The notes beneath the pieces were generated by a model. It was given only the letters and a program-made list of their open reading frames with translations, did not search any database and was not told where the DNA came from. The position numbers and the translations under genes were made by a program. Shown one piece after another: positions 1 to 58,815 of a stretch of DNA of 64,000 bases; within the stretch, counting starts at the first letter, position 1; every line of letters starts with the position of its first letter. Source of the stretch: Alphaproteobacteria bacterium (GTDB taxonomy: Bacteria; Pseudomonadota; Alphaproteobacteria; UBA828); assembly GCA_965221125.1 (NCBI GenBank), contig CBDCRW010000006.1, positions 1 to 64,000 of the forward strand. Reading direction: 5' to 3'.

Positions 1-994
1 CGTTGGCTGTGATCTGAGCAAGGTATTCGGCTGGTGTTTGTCCGCCAAGGGCGTGGTGTGGCCTGAAGCTGTTGAACTCGTCGGCGAAGGCGTCGATCCA
101 TCGGTTGATGTCCTTGAGGCTGTCGCTGGGCAGCTCCCAGGTAGCGTAGAACTCGTAGCGCCAGGCGCCGTTGTTGCGCTCGACATGGCCGTTGAGTTCG
201 GGCGTGCGGGGCGGCAGCTCGTAGAGGGCGATGCCGCGCCGCGCGCATTCGGCCTCGAAGTCGGCCTTGAACTCCGATCCGCCATCGACCTGGATGGCCT
301 GGATGGGGAAGGGCATGTCGGCCTGGAGCTTGTCGAGGAAGTTCTTGGCGTTGTGCGCGCTGGCGCGTCGGAAGGCTTGGGCGCAGGTCCACTTGGCGAG
401 CGGATCGCAGGCGGTGAACTGCTTGAGCGTGCGCCGCTCTGCGCCGAGAGAGACGCTGAGCGTGTCGAGCTGGACGATCTCGCCGGGCCGGCTCGGCCTC
501 AGGCCCTTGGGCAGGCGCCTGGCGTGGGGCCGCTTGCGGCGGACGCCATGGCGGCGGCGGCGCAGGGTGGGCACGGGCACGACCCGGCCTCGGGCGACCA
601 GCATCGCCAGGATGCGGCCTACGGTGCTCTCCGAGACGACCCAGCCCTCGCGGCGCAACAGGACGACCAGCTTGGCCTTGCCCCACATCGGATAGTCGCG
701 GCGCATGGCCTCGACCGCCTCCACCAGCGCCGGCGGCCAGGTCGGCCGGCGCAGCCGGTGGGGCCGGCGCGAGCCGGGCTCCGGGCGCTTCGCCCAGCGA
801 TAGAGGGTGGCGCGCGGCACGCCGACCGCCTCTGCGGCATCGGCGGCACTCAGTCCCCGCGCTCGGGCCTGCTGCCAACGCATAAGCGCATCGCGCCTGA
901 TCGCCGCTGCGCTGTCGGGGGGCTCCGCGCCGATCAGGCGCGACCCGACCATCGCGTTTCGGATAACATGGCGGGGCAGGCTTCTGACCTGCAT
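1..994 (-). CDS. IS481-type DDE (rve/integrase core) transposase, 3' end off window
   Basis: ATG at 994 after a GAAGGAGG RBS. MQVRSLPRH... with HTH (AADAAEAVGVPRATLYRW) and DDE motifs VQLDT, IQVDGGSEF and NGHVERNN. Confidence 0.88.
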   Translation of the reverse strand, partial: MQVRSLPRHVIRNAMVGSRLIGAEPPDSAAAIRRDALMRWQQARARGLSAADAAEAVGVPRATLYRWAKRPEPGSRRPHRLRRPTWPPALVEAVEAMRRDYPMWGKAKLVVLLRREGWVVSESTVGRILAMLVARGRVVPVPTLRRRRHGVRRKRPHARRLPKGLRPSRPGEIVQLDTLSVSLGAERRTLKQFTACDPLAKWTCAQAFRRASAHNAKNFLDKLQADMPFPIQAIQVDGGSEFKADFEAECARRGIALYELPPRTPELNGHVERNNGAWRYEFYATWELPSDSLKDINRWIDAFADEFNSFRPHHALGGQTPAEYLAQITAN

Positions 995-1092
995 GGGGGC
1001 CTCCTTCAGGCTGCTTCGGTTCGCACCAACAGCCTCGGAGACCCCCACCCCCACTTCAAGGGGCCCGTCTCATATCTCTCTGAACTTGGTCA
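1..1092 (-). mobile_element. IS481-family insertion sequence, copy 1 (apparently intact; last 35 bp run off the window)
   Basis: Left end reads TGACCAAGTTCAGAGAGATATGAGACGG on the minus strand from 1092. It is near-identical to the interrupted copy at 50958-58810; position 1 corresponds to 58775, giving a 1127-bp element. Confidence 0.88.
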
Positions 1093-23402: not shown

Positions 23403-24855
23403 GATCGTGTCCCGAGGAGTGGTGTAAGAGCGTCGCGCTTTACGCGGCATCCGGCGGGTAGGGCCGGGTTATTCAGGCTGCCACAGCGGACAGCTTGATC
23501 GTGGGATTGTCGCTCAGGGGAGCGATCGATTCCAGCGTCATGTACCTCCTTCCGACGGTCCATTCGTCGTTCTGCTCGAGCAGCACGGCGCCGACGAGGC
23601 GGGTGATGGCGTCCTCGTTGGGGAAGATGCCGACGACGTTGGTGCGTCGCTTGATCTCGCCGTTGACGCGTTCGAGCGGGTTGGTCGAGTGAAGCTTGAC
23701 CCGGTGCTCCTTGGGGAAGCTCATGTAGGCGAGGACGTCGTGCTGGGCCTCGTCCATGAGGGCCGCCAGCTTGGAGGCCTTGGGCCTGAGCTGGTCGGCG
23801 ATCAGGCGCCACTGGGCGGCAGCGGCCTCGGCATCGTCCTGGGCGAAGGCGGTGGCGACGAAGGCGGAGACGACGCGCCGGCCCTGCTTGCCGGCATGGG
23901 CCAGCAGGTTGCGCATGAAGTGGACGCGGCATCTCTGCCAGGTGGCGCCGAGGATCCGGGTGGTGGCGGCCTTCAGGCCCTTGTGGTCGTCGGAGATCAC
24001 CAGCTGCACGCCGCGCAGGCCGCGCCTGGTCAGCGAGCGCAGGAACTCGGTCCAGAAGGTCTCGGCCTCGGAGGCGCCGATCGCCATGCCGAGGATCTCG
24101 CGCCGGCCCTGGTCGTTGACCGCGACGGCCACGGTGACCGCGACCGGGACGATGCGCCCGGCCTCGCGCACCTTCACGTAAGTCGCATCCAGCCAGAGAT
24201 AGGGCCAGTCGCCTTCGAGCGGGCGGTCGAGGAAGCTGCGGATCTTGTCGTCTATCTCCCCGCAAAGGCGCGAGACCTGGCTCTTCGATATCCCGCTCAT
24301 GCCCATGGCCTGAACCAGTTCGTCGACCGAGCGGGTCGATACCCCCTGGATGTAGGCCTCCTGGATCACCGCCGTGAGCGCCTTCTCCGCCGTCCGTCGG
24401 GGCTCCAGGAAGCCGGGGAAGTAGCTCCCCTTCCTGAGCTTCGGAATCTTCAGGTCGACCGTGCCGGCCCGGGTCTCCCAAGGCCGATCGCGGTAGCCGT
24501 TGCGCTGGTTGATCCGCTCCGGCGTCCGCGCGCCATGCTCGGCGCCGGTCAGGCCCTCGACTTCCAGCTCCATAAGGCGCTGCGCAGAGAAGGCGATCAT
24601 CTCACGCAGCAGATCGGCGTCAGAGCTCTTCTCCAACAGCGTCCGCAGGGTAAGCTTGTCATCGGTCATCGTGGTTCTCCTTAGGCTCGGGTCGATTCGG
24701 ATTCACCCAAACCCTAAACCGGAACCGCGATGGCCACCCCGCTGTGGATAACCGGCTTGGCGCCACCAGACTCGAGGGCGGTCGCGGCGCCAAGCCGGTT
24801 ACCCACAGCTACCGGGGGTAGCGGGAGCTCCTACACCACGTCTGGGGACACAACC
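23403..24855 (-). mobile_element. IS256-family insertion sequence
   Basis: Imperfect terminal IRs GATCGTGTCCCGAGGAGTGGTGTAAG and GGTTGTGTCCCCAGACGTGGTGTAG; 8-bp TSD TTCGAGAC at 23395-23402 and 24856-24863. Confidence 0.9.
23473..24669 (-). CDS. IS256 (Mutator-type) transposase
   Basis: [38 protein letters not shown] and [15 protein letters not shown]. Confidence 0.96.
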
Positions 24856-51017: not shown

Positions 51018-53107
51018 CAGGAACATTTTTTAGTCATGGCTGAGAGGGCGGGATGACCGAGAGCGGGCAGGCTTGGGCCGATGAAGGTCCTGGCCGAGCT
51101 TGGCTGGGCGGCTGCATGGGGTCCGCGGGGGCCGGTAGGGCTCGGTTTTCGGGCTCGCCGGGCAAAGCGATCCCGCCGCGCCGTTCGACGGCGCGTCCCG
51201 TCGCGCTCTGCGACGCGGTTACGCCCGCAGGATCATGCAGCGGGCGCGATCAGGATCGCGTCGAGAGCCTCCTGGGCGCGGGCGGCATAATGCCGGTTGG
51301 CCTCGGGCAGGAAGCGGAAGCGCCCGTCGCAGCGCACGATGGCGATGGCCGCGTTGGTCAGGCAGGAGAGATTGCGCGGCAGGTGGCGCACGTACGCCCG
51401 GCAGCGGTCTTCGTCATAGGTGAAGTCGCGCACGTAGTGCAGCCGGTTCTCGATGTGCCAGTGATTGCGGACCAGAGCCAGAAGCTCCTCGGGCCCGGCG
51501 CGGTCTGCGCCGAGCGAGGTCAGGCTCCAGGTCACCTCGACGCTGCGCTCGCCGGTCTTGAGGATCTCGCGCTCGCGTTCGATGCGCATCGCCTGGCGGC
51601 GTCCGTGAAGGTTGGCGTAGCCGTCCCATTCGGCAGCGGAGAGGTCGACGACGGCGCAGCGGCGGCGCTCGATGCGGCCATGGCCCTTGTCGACGGTTTC
51701 GTGCCAGGGCGCGTCGGAGAAGTCGATCGCCTTGAGGTCTTCGAGGATGGTCTCCTGATTGTCCTTCACCGCGGTGACCACGTAGTCGGCGCGACGCCCG
51801 AGCAGGCAGCGCGCGGTCTCGTGCTGGGCGTGCATCGCATCGAGGGTGACGGTCCGGCCTGCGAGGTCGAGACTGCTGGAGAGTTCGCGCACGGCGGGGA
51901 TCTCGTTGCTCTTTCTATCGACCTCGACCTGTCCCAGGACCATGCCGGTCTTGTGCACCAGCGCCGCGACCATCATGCGCCGCCCGTCTTCGGTCTGCTT
52001 CGAGGCGCCGCGCAGGTCCTTTCCGTCCATGGCGACCGGGGCGTGCGCGCCGTCGTGCTGGCCGGTCCACCGGCCGATGGCGTTGTCCAGCGTCTCCGGC
52101 GGCAGGGCGGCGAGGATGTTGTGGAAGGTGGTGATCGCGGGCGCGGTGTAGCGCTTCTTCGAAGGGCTCCAGAACGCGCCGACCGCCTCGAGCTGCTCCT
52201 GCGAGAGCAGGGCGGCGAACTGGGCGAAGGCTGTCGAGCCCCGGTAGCCGGCAAGGCGGGCGGCGACGGCAACCGCCAGCACGGTCTTCAAGGGATAGCG
52301 CTTGCCCCGGGCATGGCGGCACTCGGGCACCTCGCCCAGGCACTCGAACAGGCTGCGCAGCCGGGGCGCCGTCATCGGCTCGCTGTGTTGCTCGGCGTTC
52401 CAGTTCGCCGGGATCTCGGCCCGGCTCAGCGCTTCGGCGGCGCCATCGCTAAGTTCGAACACGAAGACCTCCTTGGGCTGGCCGTGGTGGCGCCAGCGCG
52501 GAGCAGCTCCGGGGTCACGGGCAAAGCCGCGCGTCATCCCCAGCGAGCGCCAGTTCGACGCGCGGTAGCAGGTGCCGGCGAAGCGCGCGGGATCGACGAA
52601 GGTCTCGGCCAGGAGCGCCGGGTATCCATGCACCGCCTGGGTGTCCGCAGACAGCCGCCGCAGGCTCAGCCCCAGAACCCGCGAGGCCAGGTTGGGAACC
52701 CGCTCAGGCGTCAGGATCACGAAGCGCGAGTTGTTCGCGATCAGATGCAGGCGCCGGAACTGCTGCTCCGCCGACCAGCCGATCCAGCGGTCGCGCGCGG
52801 CCAGCTTGAACGCGCCCGGCTGCCAGCCGATCAGGGCGAGCCAGGTCTCGCCATGCACCGCGACATGGCGCAGCCCCTTGCCGACGACGCCGTGGAATCG
52901 CAGGTAGTGGTGCTCCTCCACCAGCCGGTCCCAGCGCCGGTGCTCCCGCGCGCCCCAGGTCGGGCGCACCGTGACCGCACGCAGATCAATGGACGAATCC
53001 AGGCCCGGCAACGTCGCCATGGCCGCTACACTGCCACAGCGAAAACGAAATGACCAGCGCCGCGATCACCTCACGCCGCTCGCCGGGCGGACAAAAAACG
53101 AGCCCTG
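51018..53107 (-). mobile_element. ISAs1-family insertion sequence (2090 bp)
   Basis: Ends CAGGAACATTTTTTAGTC and CAGGGCTCGTTTTTTGTC; 10-bp TSD GTCTCCGAGG at 51008-51017 and 53108-53117. The empty site is visible in copy 1. Confidence 0.92.
51233..53020 (-). CDS. ISAs1 transposase with N-terminal DUF4338 (Mom/GNAT-like) domain
   Basis: C-part DGKDLRG, TLDAMH, EKGHGR-like DKGHGRIERR and HWHIENRLH; N-part HHYL, ARDRWIGW, NNSRF, NLAS and ETFVD...GTCYRASNW. Confidence 0.88.
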   Translation of the reverse strand: MATLPGLDSSIDLRAVTVRPTWGAREHRRWDRLVEEHHYLRFHGVVGKGLRHVAVHGETWLALIGWQPGAFKLAARDRWIGWSAEQQFRRLHLIANNSRFVILTPERVPNLASRVLGLSLRRLSADTQAVHGYPALLAETFVDPARFAGTCYRASNWRSLGMTRGFARDPGAAPRWRHHGQPKEVFVFELSDGAAEALSRAEIPANWNAEQHSEPMTAPRLRSLFECLGEVPECRHARGKRYPLKTVLAVAVAARLAGYRGSTAFAQFAALLSQEQLEAVGAFWSPSKKRYTAPAITTFHNILAALPPETLDNAIGRWTGQHDGAHAPVAMDGKDLRGASKQTEDGRRMMVAALVHKTGMVLGQVEVDRKSNEIPAVRELSSSLDLAGRTVTLDAMHAQHETARCLLGRRADYVVTAVKDNQETILEDLKAIDFSDAPWHETVDKGHGRIERRRCAVVDLSAAEWDGYANLHGRRQAMRIEREREILKTGERSVEVTWSLTSLGADRAGPEELLALVRNHWHIENRLHYVRDFTYDEDRCRAYVRHLPRNLSCLTNAAIAIVRCDGRFRFLPEANRHYAARAQEALDAILIAPAA

Positions 53108-53673
53108 GTCTCCGAGGCTGTTGGTGCGAACCGAAGCAGCCTGAAGGAGGCCCCCATGCAGGTCAGAAGCCTGCCCCGCCATGTTATCCGAAACGCGATG
53201 GTCGGGTCGCGCCTGATCGGCGCGGAGCCCCCCGACAGCGCAGCGGCGATCAGGCGCGATGCGCTTATGCGTTGGCAGCAGGCCCGAGCGCGGGGACTGA
53301 GTGCTGTTGTTTTCCGGTCTAGCCGGATAGAAGCACGGGTTTTTTTCTCACTTTGATTGGTTGGTGGATTTCCCGGGATGGTGGCCGAGTGCGGGAAGGA
53401 CGCTGCCTGCGGCATTTTTTTGATCCTCAGCAGAATCCTCATTGCTGTTGAAGCTGTGGAGCGGTGGGCGCGAGATCGGCGAGTGTGGTCAGGCGGTGGG
53501 CAAGCGCCAGCTTGTCCACGGGCTGTCCACACGGTCCGCAGGACGCCGATCGGTCCGCAGGACGCGTCCACGGCTCCACAGCTTGGCGGCGGCGGGGAGC
53601 GTCCGTAATCTTGGCCTCTCACTGAACGACAAAGAGAGGCCCGGGGGACGGAACTCCCGCCGGGCCAGGGCCG

Positions 53674-54309
53674 GTGCAGCTTCGCTACGAAACGGGGCTC
53701 ACCAGCGAGGAATACGTTAAGACCGAGGCGTGGCGCGACGCAAGGCTTGAGCGCTGCCCGAATCACCCGCACGGCGGATGTTCTGTGGCAAGCCACGGCA
53801 CCTACGAGCGGAAGACCCCGCCCGGCGCAAGGGTTCCTCGCTGGTATTGCCGTGAGAGCCATACGACCATCGGCCTGCTGGCCGACTGTCTGGCGGCGCG
53901 GCTGCCGGGCACGCTCGATGCGCTGGAAGCGGTTGTTGTCGTGGCGGAGGAGGCCGGCAGCCTGGAGGAGGCAGCGGACGAGGTGCGCTGCCCCGAGGAC
54001 GAGGACGCCATCGAGCTTCCCGGCGCCGTGCGTTGGATCCGCCGCAGGCTGAAGCTTGTGCACGACGCGCTTGTGCGCGTCATCGGCCTGATCCCCGACC
54101 TGCTCGCGGGCTGCGCGCCCACCATGAGCGCGGTGCGCGAGCGTCTGAAGAGCGACAGCGCGTTGATGGAACTGCGCGGCCTGGTCGCCGGGCAGCTCCG
54201 GACGCTACCCGCGCCTCTGGGCTTCCAACCCCACGGCATCGACGTGGGGAATCGCAAACCGCAGTTCCAACAACGGGCGGGGCCGGACCCGCCGCCGGAG
54301 AGTTCGTAG
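53674..54309 (+). CDS. Cys/His-rich (putative Zn-finger plus HTH) transposon protein, DUF6431-like
   Basis: CPNHPHGGC...HGTYER...RWYCRESHTT followed by an HTH-like SLEEAADEVR...AVRWIRRR. Confidence 0.7.
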   Translation: MQLRYETGLTSEEYVKTEAWRDARLERCPNHPHGGCSVASHGTYERKTPPGARVPRWYCRESHTTIGLLADCLAARLPGTLDALEAVVVVAEEAGSLEEAADEVRCPEDEDAIELPGAVRWIRRRLKLVHDALVRVIGLIPDLLAGCAPTMSAVRERLKSDSALMELRGLVAGQLRTLPAPLGFQPHGIDVGNRKPQFQQRAGPDPPPESS

Positions 54310-54354
54310 CGTGACGATCCCGGGGCCAGGGAGTCCCTGAACGAGGATCGCACC

Positions 54355-55683
54355 ATGAACAGCTCAGACGACGACCTTCGCCAACAGATCGCGCTCTTCC
54401 GATACGACGTCATCGCCGATCTGGTGCATCTGCCCGTGGGTGCACCGGGTGCCGGCGCGATGATGCGCGCCAAAGCCGAGAAGACCTACACGATCCCCGG
54501 AACCACCAGGACCCGGGTCGCCGCCGAGACCATGCGGCGCTGGATCAAGGACTACCGCTACGGCGGCTTCGACGCGCTCTACCCCAAGCCCCGCACCGAC
54601 CGGGGGAAGCCCCGGCGGCTGCCGCCCGAGGTCGCCGAGCGCCTCATCGCGCTGAAGACCGAGAACGACGCATTGTCGGTTCGCGCCATCATCCAGAAGG
54701 TCAAGGAGGAGGGTATCGACCACCCGCTCGCCTCGTCCACCGTGCACCGCCTCTTCAGCCGCGAGGGCCTGTTCGACAAGAAGCCGCCCGACGGGGCGGA
54801 TCGCCGCCGCTTCGCCTTCCGGCATGCCGGCGAGATGTGGATGAGCGACGTCATGCACGGACCCAAGGTCCGGCACGGCCGAACCCGGCGCAAGACCTAC
54901 CTGATCGCCTTCATCGACGACGCCACCCGCGTCATCCCGTTCGCCGCCTTCGCCATGGCGGAGAACACTGCGGCGTTCCTGCCGGTGTTCAAGGACGCGC
55001 TGATCCGGCGCGGCCTCCCGGCCCGCTTGTACGTCGACAACGGAAGCGCCTACCGCTCCCGTCATCTCTCCCTGGTCTGCGCCAGGCTCGGCGTTGCGTT
55101 GATTCACGCAAGGGCGTTCCAGCCAGCGGGAAAGGGTAAGATCGAGCGCTTCTTCCGCACCCTCCGGGCCGGCTGGCTCCGCCACCTCGGCGATGACGTC
55201 GACAGCCTGGAGGCGCTCAACCGCAGCCTCTGGGCCTGGATCGAGGGGGAGTATCACAACAGCCCGCATCGTGGCCTCGACGAGGGGCGCACCCCGCTTG
55301 AGCAGTGGGCGCTGGCCTCGGCCGGCGTGCGCTATCCCGACGCCACCATGGACCTCGACGATCTGTTCCTCTTCGAGGCCAGGCGCCGTGTCTACAAGGA
55401 CCGCACCGTTAGTCTGAACGGCCGCGTCTACGAGGTCGACGCCCTCCTGGTGGGTCAGAACGTCATCCTGCGCTACGACCCGGCCGCGCCGCCCTCGCGC
55501 CCTCTCGACGTGGTCCATGACGGCAAGCCGGCCGGCAAGGCCAGCCCTCTCGACGCCTACGCCAATACCGCCGTCAGGCGCACCTACCCGGCCAGGGAGA
55601 TCGAGGCCGAAGATCCGGCGCCCGAGCCTCCGCCCTCGCCGCTGGCCATGCGCAACCTCAAGGACAAGAAGGAGGACGAGTGA
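54355..55683 (+). CDS. Mu/TnsB-like DDE transposase with Mu-type C-terminal domain
   Basis: N-terminal HTHs; WMSD, YVDNGSAY and GKIERFFRT; C-terminal RRVYKDRTVSLNGRVYEVD. Confidence 0.9.
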   Translation: MNSSDDDLRQQIALFRYDVIADLVHLPVGAPGAGAMMRAKAEKTYTIPGTTRTRVAAETMRRWIKDYRYGGFDALYPKPRTDRGKPRRLPPEVAERLIALKTENDALSVRAIIQKVKEEGIDHPLASSTVHRLFSREGLFDKKPPDGADRRRFAFRHAGEMWMSDVMHGPKVRHGRTRRKTYLIAFIDDATRVIPFAAFAMAENTAAFLPVFKDALIRRGLPARLYVDNGSAYRSRHLSLVCARLGVALIHARAFQPAGKGKIERFFRTLRAGWLRHLGDDVDSLEALNRSLWAWIEGEYHNSPHRGLDEGRTPLEQWALASAGVRYPDATMDLDDLFLFEARRRVYKDRTVSLNGRVYEVDALLVGQNVILRYDPAAPPSRPLDVVHDGKPAGKASPLDAYANTAVRRTYPAREIEAEDPAPEPPPSPLAMRNLKDKKEDE

Positions 55684-56483
55684 TGTACCTGCGCCACTTC
55701 GCCTTCACCCGCCTGCCCTTCGAGACCCCGGCAGAGACCGACGAGCTGTTCGAGTCCAACGCGCGCCGCGAGGCCGAGGCCAGGCTCGGCCACCTCATCG
55801 ACCTGCGCGGCATCGGCCTGCTCACCGGCGAGGTGGGCTCCGGCAAGACCACCGTGTGCCGGCATCTGACCGCGCAGCTTCATCCAGGCCTCTACCGGGT
55901 CCACTACGTCTCGCTGACCACGGGCAACGTGCTCGACATGTACAAGGCGATCGCGTGGGAGATCGGCCTGCCCATCGAGCGCTCCCGCGCCTCGGCCTAT
56001 CAGGCCATCCGAAACGAGATCTCCCGCCTCGTCACCGAGGCCAAGCAGCTGCCGGTCCTCGTCATCGACGAGGCCCATCATCTGCGCAACGACGTCCTTG
56101 AGGACCTGCGCCTGCTCACCAACTTCGCCATGGATGCAGAGCAGCGCCTGTGCCTCGTCCTCGTCGGTCTGACCGAGCTCAGGCGCCGCCTGGCCATGGC
56201 CATGCACGAATCCCTCAGCCAGCGCCTCGTCGTCCGCCACCACCTGAGCGGTCTCGACCGCGACGAGGTCGACGCTTACATCAAGCACCGCCTCAGGCTC
56301 GCGGGATGCGAACTGCCGCTGTTCGAAGAGCCCGCCGTCGAGGCCCTGTTCCAGGGCGCGCGCGGCCTGCCGCGCCAGATCAACCGCATCGCCCACTACG
56401 CGCTCTCCGCCGCCGCTCTCGACGAGGCGAGGACCGTCAGTGCCGACCACCTGCAGCACGCGCTCGAGGAACTGCGGCCATGA
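55680..56483 (+). CDS. ExeA/TnsC/MuB-like AAA+ ATPase
   Basis: GEVGSGKTT, VIDEAH, SQRL and GLPRQIN; overlaps the transposase stop. Confidence 0.9.
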   Translation: MMYLRHFAFTRLPFETPAETDELFESNARREAEARLGHLIDLRGIGLLTGEVGSGKTTVCRHLTAQLHPGLYRVHYVSLTTGNVLDMYKAIAWEIGLPIERSRASAYQAIRNEISRLVTEAKQLPVLVIDEAHHLRNDVLEDLRLLTNFAMDAEQRLCLVLVGLTELRRRLAMAMHESLSQRLVVRHHLSGLDRDEVDAYIKHRLRLAGCELPLFEEPAVEALFQGARGLPRQINRIAHYALSAAALDEARTVSADHLQHALEELRP

Positions 56484-57520
56484 CCGGCTTCCCGACCCGC
56501 GCCCCGATCGAGCTGGAGGAGCGGCCGCGCGAGCAGCAATGGCTGGTGGACACGCTATGGGGCGAGCAGGCCGTCGGCATCGTCGGCGGCGAGCCGAAGT
56601 GCGGCAAGTCCATCCTGGCGCTGGACCTCGCGGTCGCAGTCGCCGCCGGCGTCCCATGCCTGCGGCACTTCGCCCCGGCCCGGCCTGGCCCGGTCCTGCT
56701 GTTCGCCGCAGAAGACGCCGGCCACCTCGTGCGCAAGCGCCTGCAGGGGATCGCCCGCGCCGCAGGCGCCCGCTTCGAGACCCTCGACATCGCCGTCATC
56801 GACGTGCCCACACTGCGCCTCGACCATCTCGACGACCGCCGCCGCCTGCAGCAGACCGTGGAGCGCATCGCACCGCGCCTCGTGGTCCTCGACCCCCTGG
56901 TCCGCCTGCACGGCGTGGACGAGAACACGGTTGCGGACGTCGCCCCGATCCTCGGCTTCCTGCGCGACCTGCAACGCCGCTTCGAGACCGCCGTCCTCCT
57001 CGTCCACCACGCCCGCAAGAGCGGGGCCACGAGGCCGGGGCAGGCCCTGCGGGGCAGCAGTGAGCTGCACGCCTGGGGGGACTCGAACCTCTACCTGCGC
57101 CGCCGGGACCGGCAGACCCTCATGACCGTCGAGCATCGCGCCGCACGCGGTCTCGACGACATCGAGATCGAGCTCAAGGAAGACGGAGAGGAGCCCTCCT
57201 TCCGGCTGCGCCAGCCGCCCACGGCCGGCGGCGGGGCGCCTCAGCCCGAAACACCCGAATGCCGCGTTCTCAAGGCGCTCGCCGACGCCGGGGCGCCGCT
57301 CTCGCAACGCCAGATCCGGGAACGCGCCGCGACCCGGCACAAGACCGTCGGCGTAATCTTGCAAAAGCTCGTCCAGGAGGGTCGCGTCGCGCGCAACGCC
57401 GAGGGCGGCTACAGCGTCGTCGCAGGCGCAGCGGACAAGCGGGCGGCGGCCGCCGCCGCCAACGGCAGCAGTCGGCCGCAGGCCCCGCGGTTCCCGGAGC
57501 CCGGTTCCGCCAACGCCTAG
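56480..57520 (+). CDS. RecA-fold AAA_25 (RepA-helicase-like) ATPase with C-terminal HTH
   Basis: WLVDTLW, GEPKCGKS, AAED, LVVLDP, LVHHARK and LRGSS; C-terminal LSQRQIRE...VGVILQKLVQEGRV; ATGA overlap with the upstream gene. Confidence 0.85.
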   Translation: MTGFPTRAPIELEERPREQQWLVDTLWGEQAVGIVGGEPKCGKSILALDLAVAVAAGVPCLRHFAPARPGPVLLFAAEDAGHLVRKRLQGIARAAGARFETLDIAVIDVPTLRLDHLDDRRRLQQTVERIAPRLVVLDPLVRLHGVDENTVADVAPILGFLRDLQRRFETAVLLVHHARKSGATRPGQALRGSSELHAWGDSNLYLRRRDRQTLMTVEHRAARGLDDIEIELKEDGEEPSFRLRQPPTAGGGAPQPETPECRVLKALADAGAPLSQRQIRERAATRHKTVGVILQKLVQEGRVARNAEGGYSVVAGAADKRAAAAAANGSSRPQAPRFPEPGSANA

Positions 57521-57834
57521 GGGTTCGAGCCGGAACCGCCGTCGGGAACCACCCTTCCCCAACGGTCCGGAAGGCGCTGCGCCTCCACCGGGATACTACG
57601 TCAGGTGAGCGGCCAGTCCGTGGCCGGAAGCTTGCTTCAGGCCATGGCAGCACTTCGTCGTGTGGACGGTGGCGAGTCACCCGAAGGGCCGAAGCGAAGC
57701 GCAGGAGCGGCGCAGCCGCTTGACGCGCCGACGGCCGCGCGACACCTCGTCAGCTCTCCTCAAGCACCAGTCCAAACCTCAATCAGACAGCGACCCCGGA
57801 CCGCCCGCAGAGACCATGAGCTCCTACGCTTCGA

Positions 57835-57925
57835 TCCGGAAAAGACCGAGCAATCTGGGAAATCAGGGCAGCGATCACGTCAAATAATCTGGGAGATTCG
57901 GCGTCAAATAACGTGCGAAACAACA
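57835..57925 (-). repeat. Subterminal transposase-binding-like repeats at the right end of the 4.6-kb transposon
   Basis: Read inward: TTTCGCACGTTATTTGACG, TCTCCCAGATTATTTGACG and TTTCCCAGATTGCTCGG; a related GATTTCCCGGGAT lies near the left end (about 53368). Confidence 0.7.
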
Positions 57926-58815
57926 AGTGCCGCCGATGCCGCAGAGGCGGTCGGCGTGCCGCGCGCCACCCTCTATCGCTGGGCGAAGCGCCCGGAGCCC
58001 GGCTCGCGCCGGCCCCACCGGCTGCGCCGGCCGACCTGGTCGCCGGCGCTGGTGGAGGCGGTCGAGGCCATGCGCCGCGACTATCCGATGTGGGGCAAGG
58101 CCAAGCTGGTCGTCCTGTTGCGCCGCGAGGGCTGGGTCGTCTCGGAGAGCACCGTAGGCCGCATCCTGGCGATGCTGGTCGCCCGAGGCCGGGTCGTGCC
58201 CGTGCCCACCCTGCGCCGCCGCCGCCATGGCGTCCGCCGCAAGCGGCCCCACGCCAGGCGCCTGCCCAAGGGCCTGAGGCCGAGCCGGCCCGGCGAGATC
58301 GTCCAGCTCGACACGCTCAGCGTCTCTCTCGGCGCAGAGCGGCGCACACTCAAGCAGTTCACCGCCTGCGATCCGCTCGCCAAGTGGACCTGCGCCCAAG
58401 CCTTCCGACGCGCCAGCGCGCACAACGCCAAGAACTTCCTCGACAAGCTCCAGGCCGACATGCCCTTCCCCATCCAGGCCATCCAGGTCGATGGCGGATC
58501 GGAGTTCAAGGCCGACTTCGAGGCCGAATGCGCGCGGCGCGGCATCGCCCTCTACGAGCTGCCGCCCCGCACGCCCGAACTCAACGGCCATGTCGAGCGC
58601 AACAACGGCGCCTGGCGCTACGAGTTCTACGCTACCTGGGAGCTGCCCAGCGACAGCCTCAAGGACATCAACCGATGGATCGACGCCTTCGCCGACGAGT
58701 TCAACAGCTTCAGGCCACACCACGCCCTTGGCGGACAAACACCAGCCGAATACCTTGCTCAGATCACAGCCAACGAAACCCAGCCGTCTCATAAGCCCTG
58801 AACTAGGACACGCCA

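Follow-up and report, generated by a model that had tools for sequence, protein, structure and literature searches.

Several described transposition systems pair a DDE transposase with an AAA+ ATPase. In phage Mu and in Tn552 the ends are of the TG...CA type, several end-binding sites are unequally arranged, and insertion produces a 5-bp duplication; Tn552 also has the resolvase BinL and a res site, and Mu replication relies on host restart proteins. To our knowledge, Mu with these host proteins is the only case for which the start of the replication step in replicative or copy-out transposition is known in detail. Tn6049 is described as a 3.5-kb transposon present in 12 copies in Cupriavidus metallidurans CH34, all with the ATPase gene gspA (PMC2864759), and as having 12-bp terminal repeats and a 4-bp duplication (PMC4739549). 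In the Tn6049 copy on pMOL30 (locus L092), an open reading frame (ORF) of 181 amino acids (aa) is followed by genes for a transposase of 479 aa and an AAA_22 ATPase of 277 aa, and then by an ORF of 71 aa; its name dates from 2009-2010, and a literature search brought up no study of its mechanism. Here we describe a 4,621-bp transposon at positions 53305-57925 of the window, i.e. the whole 64,000-bp stretch that was analysed (C6:1-64000), which is part of a 4.58-Mb alphaproteobacterial assembly of 7 contigs with ~69% G+C. Its first three genes (g1, g2 and g3) represent a large family that extends across phyla and shares the layout of Tn6049, though only distantly related to it, and its fourth gene (g4) encodes a RepA/DnaB-like ATPase with a winged helix that is predicted, from its sequence and modelled fold, to be a helicase.

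The four genes of the element are the following.

53674..54309, plus strand: g1, 211-aa Cys/His zinc-ribbon and helical protein, core partner and probable remote relative of DUF6431
54355..55683, plus strand: g2, 442-aa Mu/TnsB-type DDE transposase (HTH_32, rve, Mu-transpos_C)
55680..56483, plus strand: g3, 267-aa MuB/TniB-type AAA_22 ATPase, with a conserved ATG at 55683
56480..57520, plus strand: g4, 346-aa predicted RepA/DnaB-like RecA-fold ATPase with a C-terminal winged helix, accessory module

The co-oriented genes fill the element. A gap of 45 bp separates g1 from g2, stop/start overlaps join g2 to g3 (GTGATG) and g3 to g4 (ATGA), and the non-coding ends beside the four genes measure only 369 bp and 405 bp. 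This gene arrangement, with the last three genes coupled by overlaps, had been proposed in a first-pass annotation of the window and is hereby confirmed; indeed, all factual parts of that description of the element proved correct. It had also stated that TnsA, TniQ, a resolvase and ordinary cargo are missing, in agreement with which Pfam and NCBIfam detected no TnsA, TniQ, Cas or resolvase domain in the four proteins, and there is no room for more genes.

The g2 protein contains HTH_32, rve (1.2e-10) and Mu-transpos_C (1.7e-7) according to Pfam, matches a MuA-like PHROG (3.2e-49) and, among PDB entries, finds the TnsB protein of a type V-K CRISPR transposon (7svw, expect value (E) 5e-7). Its candidate catalytic triad, D165, D228 and E264, is invariant across 24 relatives. 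The g3 protein matches AAA_22 (5.7e-27) and, weakly, TniB (2.9e-4) in Pfam, phrog_296, a DNA transposition protein (1.4e-29), and MuB in the PDB (8xvb, E 1e-3), and both its Walker A GxGKT and its DEAH motif are invariant among the aligned relatives. The Pfam, PHROG and PDB matches thus support the earlier placement of this transposase and its AAA+ partner in the Mu/Tn7/Tn552 mechanistic class. That is, with an rve and a Mu C-terminal domain, an AAA+ neighbour, and the ends and duplication described below, the element belongs to the Mu/TnsB-type DDE plus AAA+ superfamily. For g1, no match was obtained in Pfam, NCBIfam or PHROG, and none directly with the Pfam family DUF6431 (PF20020) even at E 10; all 1,297 g1 relatives are unnamed or 'hypothetical'. 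An AlphaFold (AF2) model of g1 (pLDDT 83) gave no Foldseek match against the PDB at E<=1e-3, and no fold class is claimed for it. A comparison by hhalign of the g1 profile with the profile of positionally equivalent ORFs in distant loci returned a probability of 94.5% (E 8e-8), and 5 of 13 of these ORFs match DUF6431. By way of these ORFs, g1 would be a remote relative of the DUF6431 proteins.

The left and right tips of the element are TGTTGTTT and AAACAACA, respectively. The interrupted target is an insertion sequence (IS) with an rve-type transposase, an intact copy of which lies at window 1-1043 on the minus strand and reads through the insertion site without the insert (GACTGAGTGCCGCCG), thereby providing the empty site. 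The two IS copies form inverted-repeat arms, 1-850/57926-58775 and 846-1043/53107-53304, whose overlap is exactly the 5 duplicated bases. With AGTGC on both flanks and an intact IS that reads through, the boundaries, the empty site and the 5-bp duplication proposed earlier were all borne out. The features of the ends and of the insertion site are listed below.

53300..53304, no strand: left copy (AGTGC) of the target-site duplication, with the empty site at window 846-850 in the intact IS
53305..53324, plus strand: left terminal inverted repeat TGTTGTTT, candidate terminal transposase site L1
53366..53379, plus strand: left subterminal repeat L2, GGATTTCCCGGGAT
53532..53565, plus strand: 15-bp direct repeat CGGTCCGCAGGACGC, two copies, upstream of g1
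57846..57865, minus strand: right subterminal repeat R3, TGATTTCCCAGATTGCTCGG, read inward
57878..57899, minus strand: right subterminal repeat R2, GAATCTCCCAGATTATTTGACG, read inward
57903..57925, minus strand: right terminal inverted repeat and terminal site R1, AAACAACA on the plus strand
57926..57930, no strand: right copy (AGTGC) of the target-site duplication
53107..53304, plus strand: left part of the host IS (rve-type transposase), a 100% match to the reverse complement of window 846-1043
57926..58775, plus strand: right part of the host IS, matching the reverse complement of window 1-850, with an ORF that has rve/rve_3/HTH_32

A ~17-20 bp motif (GATTTCCCGGATTATTT-like) occurs at three sites in the right end, namely at the tip, ~27 bp in and ~60 bp in, and at two sites in the left end, the tip and ~60 bp in. 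The subterminal repeats noted earlier are thus real, and the repeated block is conserved in the aligned ends of relatives, both at the three right-end sites and at the left-end tip plus one site. The left tip itself is conserved in relatives as TGTTGT(T/C)TC(C/G)C, and L2 has an aligned counterpart at the left ends of loci L010-L019 and also aligns with the R2/R3 motif. The 15-bp direct repeat was considered as a site for the winged helix of g4. However, CGGTCCGCAGGACGC is also present in the g4-less relative L012 and is therefore not tied to g4, so that a g4-specific site was rejected. The same relative presents a further peculiarity: the left non-coding end is, over its inner 255 bp (53420-53673), nearly identical to L012:5064-5318, whereas the tips of the two elements are only ~80% alike and their proteins 79-89%. 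This suggests that the elements are mosaics made by recombination.

The element is present in 20 copies in its own genome, all 100% identical, which together account for ~2% of the genome and represent a signal far beyond chance. Of these, 17 are intact, and the other three contain an interrupting 1,453-bp IS. Perfect 5-bp duplications flank 15 of the 20 copies and 4-bp duplications (CCTT and CTGC) two others; one copy has a duplication matching at 4 of 5 positions, and the remaining two have swapped duplications. Taken together with the insertion into an IS with a known empty site, the 20 identical copies substantiate the earlier suggestion of recent activity. The 15 clean target sites all differ, with a weak palindromic CCNGG-like bias (C at position 2 in 11 of 15, G at position 5 in 9 of 15). 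No evidence was obtained that g1 or g4 takes part in target selection, as had been proposed, the weak CCNGG-like bias being all that the insertion sites show. The minimum spacing between copies, 18,978 bp, is by a rough estimate within chance for 20 copies in 4.6 Mb, and no target immunity is claimed. The two copies with swapped duplications lie in inverted orientation 40 kb apart (C4:671960-676580 and C4:716887-721507) and are flanked by CGGGG/CCCTC and CCCTC/CGGGG, respectively, which indicates that the 40-kb segment between them has been inverted. Homologous recombination and intramolecular replicative inversion are both expected to give this same structure.

Outside the genome of origin, 16 of 18 same-genus genomes gave a match at E<=1e-3, 11 of those 16 at E<1e-50, and they include multi-copy four-gene relatives with 81-98% DNA identity. 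A search of a plasmid collection with the DNA of the whole element returned only two short chance-like matches. Pieces with 90-99% identity in contigs of four RNA libraries from 3 studies cover most of the element, and three of these contigs bridge the g3/g4 junction; this is a weak hint, as DNA can occur in such libraries and the contigs are not equivalent to transcripts.

The wider family was delineated from the transposase, for which 5,837 relatives of g2 were scored. A genomic scan confirmed at least 445 stretches, the best 80 of which were kept, corresponding to 79 distinct loci (L009-L087) that were examined and that span Alpha- and Gammaproteobacteria, Spirochaetia, Bryobacterales, Verrucomicrobiae, Desulfobacterota, Bacillota and others. 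Of the 60 loci whose transposase identity is 46% or more, 58 have a g1 homolog beside g2, and in 59 g2 is followed by g3, the misses being contig ends or broken copies. In L024:16-637, the g1 homolog is found on the strand opposite g2 and is split between two frames, reflecting either a rearranged copy or an assembly error. Comparison of within-genome copies of the relatives defines ends of the form TGTTGTTTCCC...GGGAAACAACA with 5-bp duplications, and sizes of 3.3-3.5 kb for elements with three genes and 4.2-4.4 kb for those with four. In the more distant loci (37-43% transposase identity) the ORF at the position of g1 encodes a CxxC...WGHG...RYRCxxC protein, and plasmids of Cupriavidus necator and Geobacillus carry the trio annotated as a DUF6431 protein, a DDE/IS481-family transposase and an AAA ATPase. 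The g1 gene is thus a conserved core gene, and the backbone represents a new family of the known Mu/Tn552/Tn6049-like DDE plus AAA+ kind, which is very abundant and has no name so far, unless ISfinder or TnCentral already provides one. The first-pass annotation had proposed a distinct family; this stands insofar as the transposase is only 26% identical to that of Tn6049, and falls insofar as the trio crosses phyla in a Tn6049-like layout and hence is not an isolated new system. Likewise, of the four genes whose co-occurrence had been in question, g1, g2 and g3 do travel together, whereas g4 is accessory.

The g4 protein matches AAA_25 in Pfam (9.4e-37), with weak matches to a MarR-type winged helix-turn-helix and to DnaB_C. 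By sequence, the PDB offers a single match to it, namely RepA, the hexameric helicase of RSF1010 (1g8y, E 9.6e-10), and the alignment passes through Walker A, AED, LDP, HHA.K and RGSS. The helicase motifs H1, H1a, H2, H3 and H4 on a RecA-fold core were accordingly found in g4 by Pfam, the RepA alignment and fold matches. With the AlphaFold model (pLDDT 75), the best Foldseek match was DnaB (E 2.5e-11) and the fullest coverage was obtained with RepA (TMt 0.68-0.70). The same model also matched Rad51, RadA and Dmc1 (E ~1e-10 to 1e-9). One could imagine from this that g4 is a RecA/RadA-type recombination protein that resolves cointegrates or repairs the donor site, thereby replacing the missing resolvase, and the pair of copies with swapped duplications does show recombination or replicative inversion between copies. 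We nevertheless judge such a role very unlikely, in that the sole PDB sequence match is a RepA helicase, including the helicase-type HHA.K and RGSS motifs, that Pfam gives AAA_25 and weak DnaB_C with no RecA/Rad51 family among the matches listed, and that the link of g4 with primase-type genes, described below, would be left unexplained.

The slot behind g3 was scored along a transposase tree of 61 rows, made of 55 of the loci L009-L087, the window and 5 others, from which g2 matches of <=380 query residues or with a stop and exact duplicate proteins had been dropped (this tree and the g4 tree below were built with a 'quick' method and carry SH-aLRT support only). The slot holds DUF3991 plus Toprim_2 in 9 rows, AAA_25 in 7 and AAA_25 plus a DnaG-like primase in 1; it was scored 'none' in 26, which were screened with g4 and Toprim queries only, and was not assessable in 18. 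At least 7 changes are needed to account for these states. Elements with three genes are themselves multi-copy and flanked by duplications, as seen for L017 (3 copies), L019 (at least 6 loci), L026, L028 and L037, and a three-gene variant (L207) exists in the same genus as the window. Therefore, g4 is an accessory gene that mobility does not require.

Among 401 genomes of the phylum, all three g4 matches at >=41% identity other than the element's own follow a transposase/AAA_22 pair; the other matches reach at most 35% identity, many of them in much longer frames (up to ~1,000 aa). A metagenome scan with a g4 alignment retrieved at least 578 relatives, of which the best 80 were kept and 72 have at least 300 bp of upstream sequence. 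Directly upstream of the g4 relative lies an AAA_22 gene in 66 of the 72 assessable loci and an IS21-type IstA/IstB pair in 4, the remaining 2 having a truncated g4; altogether, 70 of 72 relatives thus immediately follow the AAA+ gene of a DDE transposon, and the transposases concerned fall into four families. Both transposase and ATPase were found in 39 of the 42 metagenome loci with enough sequence, and the first ORF with both in 27 of 34. The AAA_22-linked loci are nearly all of Tn6049 type. In the IS21-type elements (L139:430-4386, and also L137, L146 and L154), IstA with Mu-transpos_C_2 and IstB_IS21 are followed by the g4 relative (54% identity) and preceded by a 189-aa ORF without a family.

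It could be argued that g4 is a selfish passenger without a role in transposition, for instance a plasmid or phage replication remnant or a defence or addiction gene, lodged in the sole permissive slot of the element. Many active relatives do lack g4, the content of the slot varies between none, Toprim and AAA_25, and distant AAA_25 proteins (25-35% identity) form part of larger proteins, and no transposon genes were detected in the retrieved loci that surround them. We regard this as unlikely in view of the position directly behind the AAA+ transposition gene in 70 of the 72 assessable relatives, the recurrence of stop/start overlaps in unrelated backbones and the invariance of the ATPase motifs across the g4 clade. 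Moreover, each slot-filler examined by name is of replication type, with no mixed cargo, bearing in mind that the 26 'none' rows were screened with g4 and Toprim queries only. The g4 gene is thus not sporadic cargo, its clade being almost restricted to the slot behind the AAA+ gene of DDE/AAA+ transposons. The possibility raised earlier that both g1 and g4 are dispensable cargo hence does not apply to g1, which belongs to the core, and applies to g4 only in that g4 is dispensable for mobility.

A g4 tree was built from 75 rows, comprising 65 of the 80 metagenome loci and 10 others, after removal of matches of <850 nt or with stops. It is dominated by copies linked to Tn6049-type backbones. Copies of the window lineage form one group in a fully supported clade that also holds Tn6049-type-linked copies, and the IS21-linked copies and one more copy linked to the wider family of the window are nested elsewhere in the tree. 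In two same-genus genomes, Tn6049-type backbones with a g4 relative (75% and 70% identical) are present in many copies. These data point to lateral capture of the g4 lineage of the window from Tn6049-type transposons. More generally, the g4 linkage and the g4 tree indicate that the gene has moved several times among unrelated DDE/AAA+ transposons, each time to a place directly behind the ATPase gene. In one of the two same-genus genomes (locus L206:2815-7072, G413:C8) a Tn6049-type backbone is followed by AAA_25 and then by a DUF3991/Toprim-like gene, and in another locus (L123:315-5273, G158:C87) the order is transposase, AAA_22, AAA_25 and a DnaG-like primase (Zn_ribbon_DnaG plus Toprim_2).

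The movement of g4 between backbones also bears on whether it might be a regulator or a target/immunity factor, in which its winged helix would bind element or target DNA under ATP control and tune transposition frequency or site choice. The C-terminal winged helix of g4 is of MarR/GntR type, the RSF1010 homolog was deposited as 'regulatory protein RepA', and the element has no TniQ-type selector. Such a function seems to us distinctly unlikely, even more so than that of a passenger: g4 copies that are 70-80% identical sit on backbones with unrelated ends and transposases, a misfit to sequence-specific end binding, the sites of the g4-bearing element show only the weak CCNGG-like bias and three-gene relatives also insert at varied sites, and the pairing of g4 with DnaG-like or Toprim genes points to DNA synthesis. 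The backbones served by these near-alike g4 copies encode proteins that are <30% identical. This leads us to expect that what g4 recognises is not one particular transposon protein but either a structure in the DNA or some conserved factor of the host.

The best overall explanation, in which we have moderate confidence, is a DDE transposon with a trio core that uses Mu-like joining and replication, with g4 as a helicase at the replication step. As neither a TnsA-like second nuclease nor a resolvase is present, the transposase probably acts as in Mu, nicking the 3' ends and transferring them to target DNA held by the g3 ATPase; the fork formed in this way would then serve to replicate the element. 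Alternatively, the affinities to IS481 and IS21 would allow a replication-dependent copy-out. In the Mu-like scheme, g1 may be a DNA-binding assembly or regulatory subunit, given its own zinc ribbon and the helix-turn-helix seen in a DUF6431 relative. The g4 helicase would be loaded at the branched intermediate made by the transposase and would make the replication step less dependent on the host restart machinery; in relatives, the Toprim or DnaG-like protein of the same slot may work with g4 or replace it. That g4-type genes help to replicate the transposition intermediate is suggested by their RepA/DnaB likeness together with their exclusive link with transposition modules whose intermediates need replication, by their co-occurrence with DnaG-like/Toprim genes, and by the Toprim replacement in sister lineages. 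A role in replication accounts for the pairing with primase-type genes better than a recombinase, a passenger or a regulator would. As described in a preprint, the IS-excision enhancer is a primase-helicase that is encoded outside the IS and acts on IS intermediates (10.1101/2023.06.07.543989); it would be a precedent for the idea of transposon replication, and not a relative of g4.

Several observations weigh against this explanation. The same preprint holds that IS481 and IS21 are thought to use a copy-out-paste-in pathway through circles (10.1101/2023.06.07.543989), and g2 is close to the IS481 model (201.9 bits against a cut-off of 224), so that the Mu-like pathway is not established. The swapped duplications of the C4 pair are equally explained by homologous recombination. 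As for the helicase, the Foldseek scores of g4 to Rad51 and RadA nearly equal those to DnaB and RepA, so that the assignment rests mainly on the RepA sequence match, and the residue preceding the Walker A lysine, canonically G, is C in most members of the g4 clade (PKCCKS, the copy in the window being PKCGKS). The DUF3991-Toprim proteins have no solved relative in the PDB and only a faint match to dnaG (E 0.007), and could therefore be nucleases rather than primases. Furthermore, g1 shows no detectable homology to the Tn6049-type first ORF, and g4 is dispensable for the proliferation of related elements, so that its role is not essential.

Extending the argument, we tentatively propose that a class of bacterial DDE/AAA+ transposons carries a laterally exchangeable replication module, i.e. 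a RepA/DnaB-type helicase with or without a Toprim/DnaG-type primase, which would be loaded at the transposase-made fork and would allow copying without the host restart primosome; this seems to us plausible, if short of probable. As equally tentative members we would count the family described here, the Tn6049-type elements, a third lineage and some IS21-type elements. If transposons indeed bring their own helicase and primase, the start of replication would become directly testable in a four-gene system of 4.6 kb. It could also explain the host range and burst-like expansion of such elements (20 identical copies), would matter for the engineering of TnsB/TnsC-type insertion tools without TnsA that leave cointegrates, and would establish 'self-priming' replicative transposons as a bridge between transposons and replicons, helping to explain their spread across phyla. 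Whatever the mechanism, the analysis defines the family together with its ends and its conserved zinc-ribbon subunit, and shows how it relates to Tn6049. Genome annotation stands to benefit, as many short contigs of metagenome-assembled genomes are simply this element.

Other features of the surroundings may be mentioned briefly. The host IS, with its rve-type transposase and HTH_32, has at least two nearly identical copies, one of which lies at the very start of contig C6, which makes this repeat a probable break point of the assembly. A 595-aa ORF (window 51233-53020, minus strand) immediately to the left of the interrupted IS has a translation that looks like the transposase of another IS. 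An Rfam scan of 53000-58200 returned no family. The 1,453-bp IS found inside three of the transposon copies has 14 identical copies in the genome and a transposase of ~400 aa that is IS256-like as judged from its translation only; its presence there indicates that it was active after the transposon had spread. Its copies include the following.

Window 23403-24855, minus strand: 1,453-bp IS
C5:758404-759856: 1,453-bp IS
C6:194952-196404: 1,453-bp IS
C7:276233-277685: 1,453-bp IS

In a full-text search, which leaves subscription journals outside, no literature was found that links AAA_25/RepA- or DnaB-like helicase genes or DUF3991/Toprim genes with such transposons, and the earlier statement that no DDE/AAA+ transposon with a coupled RecA/RepA-type ATPase was known agrees with this full-text literature. 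The claim to novelty thus holds in part: as a family the core is not entirely new, and for a g4-type helicase module in such transposons no prior description was found. Compared with its first interpretation, the element is less exotic, being neither isolated nor dependent on four genes, and more general, its helicase module being present in four transposon families.

How, then, does the element compare with known systems? Its ends, TGTTGTTTC...GAAACAACA with repeated subterminal sites, enclose the trio. With Mu (MuA/MuB) and Tn552 (p480/p271) it shares a Mu-type C-terminal region in the DDE transposase, an AAA+ activator that acts on target DNA, TG...CA ends, unequal multiple end sites and a 5-bp duplication. 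It differs from them in having no phage genes, resolvase or res site, and in possessing an extra zinc-ribbon protein and a helicase-like gene. The plasmid records matched numbered 1,037, of which 408 are from Staphylococcus, the host genus of Tn552, and these may include Tn552. Like Tn7 (TnsABC+D/E) and Tn5053/Tn402 (TniABQR), the element has a TnsB/TniA-type transposase and a TnsC/TniB-type ATPase, a 5-bp duplication and TGT ends; in contrast to them, its four proteins include no TnsA, TniQ/TnsD or TniR and its insertion is not site-specific. IS21 (IstA/IstB) is likewise a two-protein DDE plus AAA+ system, and some IS21-type elements carry a g4 relative behind istB, but g2 scores only 43 bits against the transpos_IS21 cut-off of 160 and g3 has no IstB_IS21 match. 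From IS481 the element is set apart by a g2 score below the NCBIfam transpos_IS481 cut-off and by its four genes, as opposed to a single-gene IS. TnRErm46/ISRe46 of Rhodococcus equi was considered as a characterised relative and rejected, being a true single-transposase IS481 element with an NCTAGN target (PMC6794481). With respect to g4, RSF1010 RepA (1g8y) shares the RecA-fold core, the catalytic AED, Walker A, the Walker B LDP, HHA.K and RGSS, whereas g4 adds a C-terminal winged helix, sits in a transposon instead of a plasmid replicon and has no RepB/RepC partners.

The closest layout is that of Tn6049. Both elements have the gene order small Cys-rich ORF, DDE transposase (HTH_32 plus rve) and AAA_22 ATPase, both are compact and multi-copy with TGT...ACA-type ends and short duplications, and in relatives of Tn6049 the ATPase gene is likewise followed by this AAA_25 gene. 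A search for the Tn6049 terminal repeat, as published (PMC4739549), in the C. necator locus L088 yielded one match with 2 mismatches, no better than shuffles; the L088 transposase is not a close relative of that of Tn6049. In four metagenome loci, the search for bounding inverted repeats of Tn6049-type elements gave only chance-like pairs. Despite the shared layout, the Tn6049 transposase is only 26% identical to g2 (E 9e-25), whereas the true Tn6049 relatives are 50-60% identical to Tn6049, and the two Tn6049-type rows used as outgroup in the transposase tree group together with full support (100), their long branches standing apart from the family of the window. The first ORF of Tn6049 gave an hhalign probability of 3.6% with g1, and no relation was found by hhalign between the set of DUF6431-like ORFs and the Tn6049-type first ORFs. 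Moreover, the terminal repeat of Tn6049 is TGTGCATAAGCA, as against TGTTGTTT here, and a 71-aa ORF occupies the place of g4. Judging from its transposase and first ORF, the element of the window would thus lie outside the Tn6049 family in the strict sense, although the two share their gene order.

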